Sequence record: OR844650
Reading direction: 5' to 3' (one strand)
Origin: Escherichia phage ECO103 4-12-1
Length of the DNA: 64,000 nt
Part shown: positions 17,595 through 21,746 of the stretch, one piece after another
Layout of the letters: each line of letters begins with the position of its first letter
Position numbering within the stretch: the first letter of the stretch is position 1
The notes under the pieces: model-generated
Told to the model about the DNA's origin: nothing
The model's database searches: none
What the model saw: the letters and a program-made list of their open reading frames with translations, nothing else
Made by a program: the position numbers and the translations under genes

Positions 17595-18251
17595 TTATTT
17601 TGCTTTACGTTCTGCAAATAGTTGTTTTACTTTCTCAATAGCTTTAGTCTGTGAAATACCTTCTGGAATTTCTAGATAAATTGTTTTACTATCTTTCGGT
17701 TGTTCAACAACTTGTGTTTGCGGACGCAAGCTTGGCTCTAAATTGTATGCACGTTCATAATGTTCTTTAGCCAGTTTTTCATATTTTTGTGCATCAGTGA
17801 GAAGTTGTTCTACAATAGTAGCTTCTTCTACTTTAGTGTCCGCTTCTTGTGGATTGAATGGGTTAAAGTCTTTTACTTTACCATCTTCTTGTACTTTCGC
17901 TTGATTTTCATCTAATGCTTTGTTTAGAACATCAAGAGAAATTTTATTATTACCACCAGTGTGCATATCAATGTCACAAGTACGAACGCGACGTAGATGC
18001 TGCATGTTGTGTAGAACATCTAGCATTTTGCGTCCATCGAGATAACCAATTTTATGCATTACTTCCCACAAATCAATATTAGATTGACCATGACCCATAA
18101 CAATATCAGTTACTGCGTGTACATATGCTTCTGGTAGTGAATCACGATAAACGATAAGGCAGTGTTCAGGATCATCTGGTAGTGAACGCCAAACAACAAA
18201 AACACGAGAACCTGTATTACGCATTACACCAACATGACGAATAGCTGCCAT
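17595..18251 (-). CDS. hypothetical protein
   Basis: 218-aa ORF, ATG start, tightly spaced with neighbours. Confidence 0.55.
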   Translation of the reverse strand: MAAIRHVGVMRNTGSRVFVVWRSLPDDPEHCLIVYRDSLPEAYVHAVTDIVMGHGQSNIDLWEVMHKIGYLDGRKMLDVLHNMQHLRRVRTCDIDMHTGGNNKISLDVLNKALDENQAKVQEDGKVKDFNPFNPQEADTKVEEATIVEQLLTDAQKYEKLAKEHYERAYNLEPSLRPQTQVVEQPKDSKTIYLEIPEGISQTKAIEKVKQLFAERKAK

Positions 18252-18253
18252 AA

Positions 18254-18514
18254 TTATTCTCCTTTATCTTCTTGAGTTTCACTATCTTGTGATTCAGCTT
18301 CTTCTTTAGCTGCATCTTCTTGTGCTTTAATATCTTCAAGAGCTACATTTGCAAAAGAAACAAATTTAGATACAACTGGAGCAACCTCAACAAGTTCTTC
18401 AACTTTAAAGGTGTTTCGTGCAACAGCAGCTTCCATGATTTTTGCAGCATTGATTAGGTCTAGAAGGGTTAGTTGAATTTGATTATTTTCTTGTTCCATT
18501 TTAATACTCTCCAT
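18254..18514 (-). CDS. hypothetical small acidic protein
   Basis: 86-aa ORF with acidic C-terminal tail. Confidence 0.5.
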   Translation of the reverse strand: MESIKMEQENNQIQLTLLDLINAAKIMEAAVARNTFKVEELVEVAPVVSKFVSFANVALEDIKAQEDAAKEEAESQDSETQEDKGE

Positions 18515-18561
18515 GTATATTGGTACATTAACTATTATATCATATTTTTATAAGTTGTCCC

Positions 18562-18596
18562 ACTTATAAAAGAAGAGAACGGAATTTTCCGTTCTC
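18562..18596 (-). terminator. intrinsic terminator
   Basis: GAGAACGG-AATTTT-CCGTTCTC hairpin followed on - strand by TTCTTTTAT. Confidence 0.6.
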
Positions 18597-18608
18597 ATTA
18601 TTTAGTAC

Positions 18609-20033
18609 TTAACTACGTTGACGCTTTTTATCAGCTTCATATTCGTAGTGTACAGTCTCACCAAATGGTGCAACTTTATTTGGGTTACTGTGAATCACGA
18701 ACAGTGTTTTACAGTAGTTTGGATCACCCCATGACTGCCACGGTTCACCATCAGTAAACATTACAAGCTGTTTAGGCTTGTAGTTGTCGTTCTTCATATG
18801 AACCCATACTGCTTCAAAGTCAGTACCACCACCACCTTTTACTGGATATTCCAGAATCTTACGTTCTTCGCCAGTTTTGTAATCCTTTACAGTATAAACT
18901 TCAGTATCAAAAGTCATGATACGAATCTTAAACTGTTTGAATTGTTTAGTGATGCCAAGAACTTCACTAATGAAATCACGAAGCATATCTTCAGAAATAG
19001 ACCCAGAAGCATCTAGTGCAATCGCAATATCAATATCATCATCTGGTTTCATCCCTGGGTAAATTGGATTACCATAGAATGAGCCATTAGAACCAAAACC
19101 TGCACCCCAAGAACGACGATTCGGATTTTGATATGTTGCATCAGACTTCAACCAACTACGAAGTGTACGTTGAAGTTTTGAACGCCAGTCAATCTTTGGT
19201 TCTTTAAAGTTGTTAATCATACGAGCGATTTCTGCTGGTGTACCACCTGCACGAGCAGCATTCATCATTGCTGTTTTGAAATCATCCATGTAATCACGTT
19301 TTTGCTGTTCACTTGAACCACCCTCTTGACCTTCTTGTGGAACGTCATGCTGGTCAATGGTAGTACCTTTTGGTTTACCCTTACCATCTTTAATATCGCC
19401 AAAAGTACCGCGATTTTTACCTTCACCTTCACCGCCGCCACTTTGTGGTTGACCTTCACCTTCACCATCTTCTTTTTGTTCTTCTTCTTCAAGAAGAATG
19501 TAAATCTCTTCTGCGGTCATGCCTTCATATTTTTTATCATACAACCATGAACTTTGGATTTTCCCAATTTTCTCACGAACGATGATTTGGTTAATGGCAT
19601 AATCCGCTGCACGGTTATAACGTTGTGGATCACGCATACCACGACGAAGGAAGTGATCGTAAGCACAGTGTAGAATTTCATGACAAATTACAGCAACAAG
19701 GTTTTCATCAGTCAAACCTTCAGTCATTTCTTTTAATTGTTCGTCTGTAACTTCAGGGTGCTTTTCACGAATAGCTTCTTCATATTCTTTCTTTTTAGAT
19801 GGGTCTTGAATGCCCATTACAAATTCTACGTTGTAGAATAGATGTTTACCATCCACTGCTAGAGTACGACACCATGTATTATTAGGAACTGGACGTAAAC
19901 GTGAAGCGAGTACACCAAAGAATGGTGCAGTTAACATCAAAGATGTACGAGCCAGAACCAGACGTTCTTGACATTCTTTCTGGAGTGCCGGAGATACTTC
20001 ATTGAATCTTGAAGTAGATTTGTTATCTGACAT
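18609..20033 (-). CDS. VWA-domain protein with N-terminal HExxH metallopeptidase-like domain
   Basis: HEILHCAYDH zinc-binding-type motif; later DASGSIS MIDAS-like motif of von Willebrand A domains; GAGGAAA RBS. Confidence 0.8.
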   Translation of the reverse strand: MSDNKSTSRFNEVSPALQKECQERLVLARTSLMLTAPFFGVLASRLRPVPNNTWCRTLAVDGKHLFYNVEFVMGIQDPSKKKEYEEAIREKHPEVTDEQLKEMTEGLTDENLVAVICHEILHCAYDHFLRRGMRDPQRYNRAADYAINQIIVREKIGKIQSSWLYDKKYEGMTAEEIYILLEEEEQKEDGEGEGQPQSGGGEGEGKNRGTFGDIKDGKGKPKGTTIDQHDVPQEGQEGGSSEQQKRDYMDDFKTAMMNAARAGGTPAEIARMINNFKEPKIDWRSKLQRTLRSWLKSDATYQNPNRRSWGAGFGSNGSFYGNPIYPGMKPDDDIDIAIALDASGSISEDMLRDFISEVLGITKQFKQFKIRIMTFDTEVYTVKDYKTGEERKILEYPVKGGGGTDFEAVWVHMKNDNYKPKQLVMFTDGEPWQSWGDPNYCKTLFVIHSNPNKVAPFGETVHYEYEADKKRQRS

Positions 20034-20044
20034 GTATATTTCCT

Positions 20045-20088
20045 CGTTTAGTTAAGATAAAAGAAGGATACCATTAGGCATCCTTCTT
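20045..20088 (-). terminator. putative terminator
   Basis: AAGAAGGAT-loop-ATCCTTCTT 9-bp stem after the ATPase gene; weak T-tract. Confidence 0.4.
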
Positions 20089-20107
20089 GTCAACAACTCT
20101 TTGTTAA

Positions 20108-21433
20108 TTAGCCAAGAGAGCGTGCTTTACGTACAAGATCAGAGTACTTAGCGATGAAATCTTTAAACGCTGGTACATCTTTAATGGAAATCGCAACCTT
20201 ATGAAGCGTGATGGTACGAATTGCCAGTACTGCCAGTTCTGCTTGAGTTGCAGAGAAGTTATGGTCTAGGAAGGTGATGAAGTTGTTACACAGTTTACCC
20301 CATTCTTCCACTGGTAGACGTTGTTCTTGCTTCTCATTGAACAGGTCGATAATTTTATAAACCAAGTTCAGAGTGATAAAGTAGTTCGCAGAAATATCCA
20401 GCGTTGCGTCGATTTCTTTGATTTCACCAGACAGAATAGACATAGTATCTGGTAATTTAGCAACGTTCTCAACGTACTCAATGTATTCAGTTGCAACACC
20501 TTCACCAACACGACCAGCAATCATTGCACGGAACACTTCTTTATCAATTGTCTTAGTTTTCTTGAGATCTTCGTAGCGTGCTACTGCTTCCCATGAACGT
20601 GGAGAAGTACCACCACTGTGAGAAGGATCTTGTGGACTAAGTGTGTTAAAGTACTTAGAACCAGTGTTGTTGATGAACGCAACAGTTGCTGGGTTCAAAC
20701 GTTTTGCAATCGCATAATCGTTAATCCAATCTTGATGATAAGGAATCATCTCAATGTGAGTCATACGGTCACGCAGTGGTGTAGCAAGAGAGAAAGTTAC
20801 ACCGCCATCAGTTTCACGGTTACCTGCTGCAAGAATCAGTGCAGTCTTAGGTAGCTTCATCTCACCAACACAACGGTCGAGGATTAGCTGATAAGACGCT
20901 GCCTGAACAATAGGCATTGCAGAGTTAATTTCGTCAAACAGAATAACACCTTTCCAATCTTCGGACAATTTCAGAACTTTAGGTGCAGCCCATACTACCG
21001 CAGTTTCAGCTACATAATCTTTTGCTTCGGCAAGCTCAGATTCTTTCAGAAGAGAACCGTCAGTTTTACGGAAAAGCTTCTCTGGTACTGGAATACCGCG
21101 AAGGTCACTTGGTTCGATTTGAGACAAACGGAAATCGATAAAGTTAGTATCTTGGTCGATTAGTTTTGCTTCAAATGCAGCCAGTTCACGGCGTAGCTGA
21201 TCAGCATTTTCAGGGTCAGCTTCGATTTGTTGTTTCATGAACTCGATTTTAGCTACGTTATCTTTACGCAGTGGGTAATTTTCATCAGCGTATTGACGAG
21301 CGATTGCAGACTTACCGATACCTGGGCTACCCCAAATCATCAGGCTATCTTGAATCATGTCAGCTAGTGCCATTGCTTCTTTAGCTTTCTTTGGAGTCAG
21401 TTTAACGTTCAGGATATCGTTTTGAGTAGTCAT
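20108..21433 (-). CDS. MoxR-like AAA+ ATPase
   Basis: Walker A GSPGIGKS, Walker B ILFDEIN, sensor LAAGNRE; AAAGGAAA RBS. Confidence 0.85.
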   Translation of the reverse strand: MTTQNDILNVKLTPKKAKEAMALADMIQDSLMIWGSPGIGKSAIARQYADENYPLRKDNVAKIEFMKQQIEADPENADQLRRELAAFEAKLIDQDTNFIDFRLSQIEPSDLRGIPVPEKLFRKTDGSLLKESELAEAKDYVAETAVVWAAPKVLKLSEDWKGVILFDEINSAMPIVQAASYQLILDRCVGEMKLPKTALILAAGNRETDGGVTFSLATPLRDRMTHIEMIPYHQDWINDYAIAKRLNPATVAFINNTGSKYFNTLSPQDPSHSGGTSPRSWEAVARYEDLKKTKTIDKEVFRAMIAGRVGEGVATEYIEYVENVAKLPDTMSILSGEIKEIDATLDISANYFITLNLVYKIIDLFNEKQEQRLPVEEWGKLCNNFITFLDHNFSATQAELAVLAIRTITLHKVAISIKDVPAFKDFIAKYSDLVRKARSLG

Positions 21434-21602
21434 GTATATATTTCCTTTTGTTGGATAAAATCGTTTAAGTTTCTATTATAGCCAATCCGTGGGCAAAAGT
21501 AAAGGAACTGTGTTAAAATAATTTAACTTATCAGTTCCTTTGTTACTTCATGAATCATCCGTGTGTTTAAAAGGTAAATCTCTTTGCTGTCTTGATGTGA
21601 AC

Positions 21603-21630
21603 ATTATATCACATCGTTTCAACTTGTCAA
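21603..21630 (-). promoter_or_regulatory. sigma70-type promoter
   Basis: - strand reads TTGACA-N16-TATAAT with TGn extended -10. Confidence 0.55.
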
Positions 21631-21695
21631 TCACTTTTTTTCTTTTTTTTCAAACTCACATCTTGTGTCGCTTGAAAACTTTATGTCTGATGCTT

Positions 21696-21723
21696 ATTGT
21701 ATCACATCATTCTATCTTGTCAA
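21696..21723 (-). promoter_or_regulatory. sigma70-type promoter (tandem copy)
   Basis: - strand reads TTGACA-N16-TACAAT with TGn extension; direct repeat of the promoter at 21603. Confidence 0.5.
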
Positions 21724-21746
21724 CATTTATTTTTAATTCATTTTTC

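Follow-up and report, generated by a model that had tools for sequence, protein, structure and literature searches.

The genes gp24 and gp25 of bacteriophage N4 were remarked upon in roseophages in 2009. N4-like phages have 14 core genes, and these two are among them; their function is given as “unknown,” and in N4 they count among the middle genes (PMC4193335). In jumbo phages of group 2.2, a pair made up of a MoxR ATPase and a protein combining a vWA domain with a metallopeptidase has been described, and a part in assembling the virion was proposed for it (Iyer et al., 2021, Viruses 13:63, PMC7824862). NorQ is known to bind NorD such that a finger of the VWA domain enters the pore of the hexamer, and ATP hydrolysis then remodels the linker of the partner (PMC13036017), while in multicellular bacteria MoxR-vWA couples act as parts of vWA-MoxR ternary conflict systems (Kaur et al., 2020, PMC7159879). 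Here we describe a four-gene cassette of Escherichia phage ECO103 4-12-1 that carries a pair of this kind. It lies within a 64,000-nt stretch of sequence record OR844650, hereafter called the window, to whose numbering all coordinates refer unless stated otherwise.

The cassette consists, in its order along the minus strand, of a gene for a putative MoxR-class, NorQ/CbbQ-like AAA+ ATPase of the N4 gp24 family (20108-21433, 441 aa), a gene for a partner protein of the N4 gp25 family with a zincin-like DUF2201_N domain and a VWA domain (18609-20033, 474 aa), and two small genes whose products we call P86 (18254-18514, 86 aa, phrog_13789), a small acidic helical protein, and P218 (17595-18251, 218 aa, phrog_15894). 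The partner gene lies downstream of the ATPase gene across a spacer of 75 nt. We interpret the cassette as the Asteriusvirus copy of an N4 gp24/gp25-type module, extended by P86 and P218, that would act inside the cell as an early or middle ATP-gated remodeller and protease, and we give this interpretation a roughly even chance of being correct. An early or middle intracellular role, tied to genes of DNA and nucleotide metabolism, is suggested by the type of promoter, the middle-gene status of the N4 homologues, the operon shared with ThyA and a SLOG-domain gene, the thymidylate synthase and dCTP deaminase genes that neighbour the module, and the existence of plasmid homologues. The module is probably not a tool for building virions. 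All four open reading frames (ORFs) of the initial annotation are present on the minus strand, and its placement of a MoxR ATPase upstream of an HExxH-VWA partner is borne out by the translations, in which the Walker A, Walker B, HEILH and DASGS motifs can all be read. Both small genes that it listed as unknowns exist as well; past the partner gene, the 86-aa frame comes first and the 218-aa frame second. As functions, it offered an assembly chaperone, a takeover device or a conflict module, without choosing among them.

The 5 kb around the cassette showed 100% identity to Escherichia phage SHEFM2K and 99.4–99.9% identity to PBECO4, 121Q (99.4%), phAPEC6 and G17, all of them jumbo myoviruses of ~350 kb in the genus Asteriusvirus (RaK2-like); the proposed phage origin of the window is upheld. 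The novelty implied by the initial annotation is not. The pair is an already described member of the N4 gp24/gp25 family rather than a new system, since that family is known, since such a pair was published in jumbo phages by Iyer et al., and since the phAPEC6 record labels the same locus “MoxR ATPase” and “N4 gp25-like protein.” The examples of Iyer et al., ASV44729.1 and ASV44728.2, are Atu_ph07 genes whose products matched the window ATPase and partner by BLASTP at 1e-52 and 1e-67, respectively, and have the same family membership and architecture as the window pair. What is added here is the four-gene order, a conserved internal terminator, the linkage to ThyA or ThyX, inteins at the active site and homologues on plasmids; in the accessible part of the account by Iyer et al., the pair stands alone, and P86 and P218, the internal terminator, the adjacency to thymidylate synthase and the plasmid homologues go unmentioned.

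In G7C, an N4-like phage, the genes for gp24 (ATPase) and gp25 (VWA-like) stand next to each other, with genes for dCTP deaminase and ThyX after them, so that the pair has nucleotide-metabolism neighbours. G7C gp24 is 30% identical to the window ATPase (E = 7e-25), and gp25 has the same DUF2201_N plus DUF2201 composition as the window partner. In contrast to the window proteins, the N4-like versions are shorter (~350 and 390 aa), and their ATPases are without the two insertions, at ~50-95 and ~115-147, that set the Asteriusvirus ATPase apart from its shorter relatives. N4-like phages also have neither P86 nor P218, and their versions of the pair are transcribed as middle genes by the phage's own RNA polymerase II, whereas the window carries sigma-70 promoters.

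The Walker A (GSPGIGKS) and Walker B (ILFDEIN) motifs occupy residues 35-42 and 164-170 of the ATPase translation. Across an alignment of 29 ATPase homologues, G38, K41 and S42 of Walker A, E168 of Walker B, N205, R223 and R279 were invariant, and D167 was conserved in at least 90%. From their positions, we read N205 (in AAGNR) as the putative sensor 1, R223 as the putative arginine finger and R279 (in SPRSW) as the putative sensor 2. Pfam placed the protein marginally in AAA (21.3 bits against a cut-off of 21.2), with AAA_3 falling below threshold (16.7 against 27). Searching for the families named in the initial annotation recovered DUF2201_N and the VWA-like DUF2201 on the partner, but the Pfam scan of the ATPase returned neither AAA_5 nor CbbQ_C. 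Homologues at ~31% identity do carry PF07726 (AAA_3) and PF07728 (AAA_5), and the family profile matched midasin AAA domains at 5e-13. An AlphaFold2 model of the ATPase (pLDDT 85.5) had as its top Foldseek matches NorQ and NorQ-NorD cryo-EM structures (E = 5e-7; target-normalised TM-score 0.55–0.63), together with CbbQ2 (6l1q). Searches of the Protein Data Bank (PDB) with single sequences gave nothing significant, and leads came from profile searches only. Assignment to the MoxR class is thus supported by the predicted fold, the motifs and the domains of homologues.

NorQ-NorD and CbbQ-CbbO are accordingly the best structural comparison for the window ATPase, and in both cases the ATPase has a VWA partner with a metal-ion-dependent adhesion site (MIDAS). 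They differ from the window pair in that ATPase sequence identity to NorQ and CbbQ is just 12–15%, in that NorD and CbbO are without a peptidase domain, and in that their clients are known metalloenzymes. The window ATPase further has an additional C-terminal helical domain of ~100 aa compared with NorQ (~255 aa), besides its two insertions. The likeness to CobS/CobT that had been suggested for the pair found no backing, as no CobS or CobT domain was detected in Pfam or NCBIfam at E ≤ 0.01.

For the partner, Pfam returned DUF2201_N (“putative metallopeptidase”) at 2e-35 (123.2 bits against a cut-off of 23.2), followed along the protein by DUF2201 (“VWA-like”) at 7e-21 (75.1 bits against 26.4). 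The HExxH motif, HEILH, lies at residues 118-122, and the MIDAS motif, DASGS, at 341-345. Across an alignment of 27 homologues, H118, E119 and H122 were invariant, H127 was conserved in at least 90%, and N140, A142, D144 and N148 were kept as well; the MIDAS set was complete (D341, S343, S345, T404 and D428). H127 and D144 are candidates for the third zinc ligand. The structural model shows two folded parts with disordered stretches at 190-238 (acidic and Gly-rich) and 295-331 and a helical region between them, and the C-terminal part has a clear VWA fold. A profile of the N-terminal domain matched solved structures faintly, the minigluzincin MJ1213 of M. jannaschii at 0.0025 and an M48 peptidase at 0.43; these zincins share the HExxH motif and are the sole solved structures that matched, but their similarity to the partner is very weak. 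In the literature, we found no peptidase activity for any DUF2201_N protein. Taken together, the predicted ATPase centre, the HExxH centre and the MIDAS site are intact and invariant in these alignments.

Two distant homologues of the partner, P0353 and P0354, contain inteins (Hint/LAGLIDADG). The intein of P0353 sits directly after the HExxH motif (HEVLH), ahead of a conserved Cys, and that of the second homologue falls within the N-x-A-[A/C]-D-Y motif. Insertion at these positions is indirect evidence that the active site is made up of the HExxH and N-x-A-[A/C]-D-Y motifs, and also that the gene is under strong constraint. Free-standing homing endonuclease genes adjoin the pair in G7C and PA5oct. 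The ATPase falls into phrog_1297 and the partner into phrog_1314, which is labelled “HNH endonuclease,” as are many GenBank and RefSeq records. We rejected this label: no HNH domain of Pfam is present, and DUF2201_N, linker and VWA cover the whole protein. Judged by this domain content, it is a propagated misannotation, and it may have been seeded by the intein-bearing members or by members that neighbour homing endonucleases.

The initial annotation had also counted the two small genes as part of the system, and conserved synteny backs this view. We sampled the 80 best-scoring viral contigs encoding relatives of the partner, most of which are 36–40% identical to the window partner; these correspond to 75 distinct loci, whose ORFs were scored with purpose-built profiles. 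An ATPase gene was found at most 1.6 kb upstream on the same strand at 70 of 74 loci, and homologues of both P86 and P218 lay downstream on the same strand at 60 of the 61 loci with enough sequence. Rearranged versions occur in PA5oct, where the P86 and P218 genes are divergent and ~1.3 kb from the pair, and in Atu_ph07, where they lie ~7 kb from the pair and adjoin ThyX. P86 has a conserved helical core of ~45 aa with invariant D19, F36 and E40 and acidic tails on both sides, and the mean net charge of its family is about -6. P218 has a conserved N-terminal domain of ~115 aa with invariant H6, Q56, G73, L77 and H81. Beyond this domain lie a disordered linker and an amphipathic helix, and the protein ends in a tail, Lys-rich or basic in most relatives and AT-hook-like in six family members. 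No P218 homologue is fused to another protein or has a known domain, and neither P86 nor P218 had a relative in Pfam or the PDB, profile searches included.

A thymidylate synthase gene was present within 6 kb downstream at 21 of 36 loci (13 ThyA, 8 ThyX), always at most 1.5 kb from the P218 gene. ThyA and ThyX share their activity without being related, which indicates that the function of thymidylate synthase is kept at that position. Two observations, the repeated proximity to genes for thymidylate synthase and dCTP deaminase and the action of NorQ and CbbQ, the nearest structural relatives, on metalloenzymes, could also be explained if the pair, similar to NorQD, CoxDE or CobST, served a nucleotide-metabolism metalloenzyme of the phage or the host as an insertase of metal cofactors or a chelatase-like chaperone. 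We consider this very improbable. ThyA and ThyX swap at the same position, and ThyA needs no metal while ThyX uses flavin; no known insertase partner has a zincin domain with an invariant HExxH; no match to CobS, CobT or CobN was obtained; and the plasmid homologues have no thymidylate synthase or dCTP deaminase neighbours.

Transcription of the cassette appears to start from host-type promoters. Upstream of the ATPase gene, on the minus strand, are two tandem sites, P1 (21696-21723; TTGACA-16-TACAAT) and P2 (21603-21630; TTGACA-16-TATAAT), which have a near-repeat of ~28 nt in common. Both have a TG extended -10, and P2 is a perfect sigma-70 consensus (12/12). Three perfect-consensus sigma-70 sites were found in the window against 0.23 expected, and the extended -10 form occurs only in P1 and P2 (2 against 0.02 expected). 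A third, weaker promoter-like site (TTTACT-17-TATAAT, 10/12) lies at 21475-21503 (-), and a leader hairpin between P2 and the ATPase start (21503-21539, -) is given as a weak terminator in the G17 record. RaK2 has a 12/12 site at the position equivalent to P2, and promoter-like sites scoring at least 11/12 were present within 400 nt upstream of the ATPase gene at 43 of 89 related loci, compared with ~7% of random 400-nt windows.

The spacer between the ATPase and partner genes holds a terminator-like hairpin with a 12-bp stem and a T run (20061-20088, -), overlapped by a promoter-like site (20093-20065, -). A hairpin was found in this spacer at 55 of 72 related loci, with unrelated sequences, and in several of the spacers inspected a fresh promoter followed it. 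A bidirectional terminator hairpin stands past the partner gene (18575-18596); the G17 record annotates the same terminators at both places. Ahead of the P86 gene is a further promoter-like site, GGGACA-16-TATAAT with TG (18534-18561, -). P86 and P218 are continued on the minus strand by a SLOG/DprA-like (DUF2493-type) gene (16998-17591, 197 aa), whose start lies 3 nt past the end of P218, and by the ThyA gene (16069-16998), whose start overlaps the SLOG stop; the four genes are thus tightly packed, 2 to 3 nt apart except for one start/stop overlap, and a terminator with a 13-bp stem, seen in the hairpin scan and annotated in G17, closes the unit (16037-16066, -). The cassette therefore spans three transcription units, namely the ATPase, the partner, and P86-P218-SLOG/DprA-like-ThyA. 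The tandem consensus promoters and the terminators of the initial annotation were found, with one correction: because the small-gene unit runs on through SLOG and ThyA to the terminator at 16066-16037, it passes the left edge, at 17595, of the stretch that had been marked out. The conserved terminator in the spacer is predicted to uncouple expression of the ATPase from that of the partner.

The leader RNA from P2 (21425-21596, -) folds better than shuffled sequences (z = -2.59), and its predicted fold pairs the Shine-Dalgarno (SD) region with a U-rich stretch further upstream. As RNA that starts at the weaker proximal promoter would not include this anti-SD segment, the transcripts may be translated differently. 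An Rfam scan of 16000-22300 gave only sub-threshold chance matches and no known RNA in the leader. The starts of the ATPase, partner and P86 genes (21433, 20033 and 18514) have the same context, (A)ATATACATG; since this context is common to the three genes, the P86 start at 18514 (86 aa) is favoured over the shorter 81-aa start used in 121Q.

By analogy with NorQ-NorD, six ATPase subunits would form a ring onto which one partner molecule docks through its VWA domain, and ATP hydrolysis would pull or twist the long linker between the zincin and VWA domains. This movement might gate the zincin protease, and a client held at the MIDAS through an acidic residue could be remodelled. P86, P218 or both would be the most likely clients or targeting subunits, and if each molecule of partner requires several ATPase subunits, a conserved terminator between the two genes would make sense.

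Several points weigh against this early or middle intracellular remodeller. The complex, its 6:1 stoichiometry, the gating of the protease and the clients are inferred by analogy, and the literature that we searched contained no experiment on any member of the family. N4-like and rV5-like phages carry the pair without P86 or P218. The synteny sample is one broad clade of large myoviruses, so that part of the synteny may reflect shared descent and not functional coupling. Sigma-70-like promoters imply the use of host RNA polymerase and are no proof of early timing. The Asteriusvirus cassette also sits amid structural genes: in agreement with the placement between fibre and tail-tube blocks in the initial annotation, genes for tail fibres and structural proteins flank the cassette on the plus-strand side in the annotation of 121Q, and a long minus-strand run with virion proteins, tail tube and sheath flanks it on the other. 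Finally, virion mass spectrometry of phAPEC6 detected the ATPase (6 peptides, 19% coverage), P218 (1 peptide) and ThyA (3 peptides) (PMC7247149), and the PA5oct ATPase record bears an “ESI-MS/MS” note.

These last observations, the position of the cassette between fibre genes and genes for tail and virion proteins and the ATPase peptides in the phAPEC6 and PA5oct virion preparations, are what would be expected if the pair were a morphogenesis chaperone and protease that helps to assemble the tail, fibre or head, with the zincin trimming structural proteins. Such a role has been proposed in print (Iyer et al., 2021, PMC7824862) and has a precedent in the MoxR-VWA pair needed for tail development of Acidianus two-tailed virus. 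We nevertheless regard it as unlikely. The cassette has host sigma-70 promoters, and the N4 homologues are middle genes while the structural genes of N4 are late; the operon of the small genes includes ThyA and SLOG, and the adjacency to thymidylate synthase is conserved; homologues occur on plasmids, which make no virions; and the phage encodes its own T4-type prohead protease. The phAPEC6 virion list includes, besides ThyA, a RecA-like protein, SSB, topoisomerase and PhoH (PMC7247149), which suggests carry-over of abundant non-structural proteins, and the partner protein is absent from it. The authors of the PA5oct study likewise count “virion-unrelated enzymes” among their detections. Presence of the ATPase, P218 and ThyA in the virion list would be due either to such carry-over or to a jumbo head in which replication-related proteins are really packaged. 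On balance, assembly of virions is less likely than an early or middle intracellular role.

The T4 late-promoter box TATAAATA occurred once in the window (60809-60816), against 10.96 ± 3.25 expected from shuffled sequences, and with a single occurrence we dropped it as a marker of timing. The window is rich in structural genes, yet TATAAATA is strongly avoided in it, from which it follows that late promoters here must look different.

Beyond the synteny sample, the partner family comprised 26,794 cluster representatives (50% identity) at E ≤ 1e-3, and tblastn found the partner in 683 phage records, including RaK2-like, PA5oct-like, Atu_ph07-like, rV5-like and N4-like phages. Its DUF2201_N plus DUF2201 architecture also recurs in G7C gp25, the rV5-like phage Bas50, Atu_ph07 and a Burkholderia plasmid. 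Burkholderiaceae plasmids, with conjugative ones among them, likewise carry homologues of the ATPase and partner genes at a short distance from each other, and in one case the pair adjoins type IV secretion genes. The gene annotated “anti-sigma factor” beside the rV5-like partner gene was considered as the ATPase and refuted; what did match the ATPase profile is a gene on the opposite strand, at a distance of 3.6 kb, that is annotated “MoxR ATPase.” On an uncultivated phage contig of 154 kb (L009, positions 1565-13113), the pair sits among genes for ClpX, ClpS, another AAA protein and ClpP, without P86 or P218, and this neighbourhood is rich in proteolysis genes. A 218-aa ORF upstream of the pair on the same contig proved not to be a P218 homologue. 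A T4 RnlA-type RNA ligase gene lies 1-3 kb from the partner gene in two unrelated contexts (Atu_ph07, contigs L007 and L096, and L009), a proximity that may be coincidence.

A two-gene core that is common to unrelated lytic phage lineages and to Burkholderiaceae plasmids would suit a device for establishment or counter-defence, in which an ATP-gated zincin destroys or remodels a defence, nucleoid or repair factor of the host soon after entry and P86, a possible nucleic-acid mimic, and P218 provide the targeting. The strong host-type promoters, the ClpS, ClpX and ClpP genes around the pair on L009 and the service of related MoxR-vWA couples in bacterial conflict systems (PMC7159879) point the same way. 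The ternary conflict systems resemble the cassette in joining a MoxR-vWA couple to linked small components, some with zincin peptidases that process small proteins, but no VMAP, iSTAND, FtsH or beta-propeller domain was found among the window neighbours, and the window module is borne by the invader, not the host. Neither PADLOC nor NCBIfam gave a match for any of five proteins, and no defence-system model was hit. The genes are, moreover, slowly evolving core genes, among the 14 of N4-like phages, and hosts of inteins, unlike fast-evolving and patchy anti-defence genes. We therefore think that a counter-defence device is improbable. A further idea is that the four-gene cassette, and its two-gene core elsewhere, is an ATP-gated protease with which invading DNA takes over or disarms the cell shortly after it has entered, the MoxR ring switching on the zincin and P86 and P218 directing it to a DNA-associated or defence protein of the host; this we consider quite doubtful. 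Counter-defence and metal insertion are thus possible readings with less support than the early or middle intracellular remodeller and protease.

Some further observations concern the surroundings of the cassette and the sources used. The SLOG/DprA-like gene (16998-17591 in the window; L006, 3999-4573) is whole in the window and in 121Q, whereas the phAPEC6 record shows two short ORFs, gp260c and gp261c; either the gene is a pseudogene in phAPEC6 or the split comes from a frameshift or a sequencing error. Two more perfect sigma-70 consensus promoters occur at 22182-22210 (-) and 51291-51319 (-), the former within the coding region of a gene for a 131-aa virion protein (22131-22526). The gp numbers in the PA5oct paper differ from the RefSeq locus tags. 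In the literature, neither N4 gp24/25 nor the EdH4 homologue is covered by data in the CRISPRi-ART paper, a 2026 review of jumbo phages does not mention the pair, and searches on DUF2201 and on leading regions returned nothing relevant.

These results are incremental; they sharpen the hypotheses on this module and argue against the sole published one, virion assembly. The pair reaches from the core genes of N4-like phages to RaK2-, PA5oct- and Atu_ph07-like jumbo phages, rV5-like phages and Burkholderiaceae plasmids. Its four-gene extent in the jumbo phages, the internal terminator, the link to thymidylate synthase and the host-type promoters provide concrete handles on the module, and it is these same features that cast doubt on a role in assembly. 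To learn the function of the pair would close a gap in what is known of the basic biology of phages, in several groups that are used in therapy.

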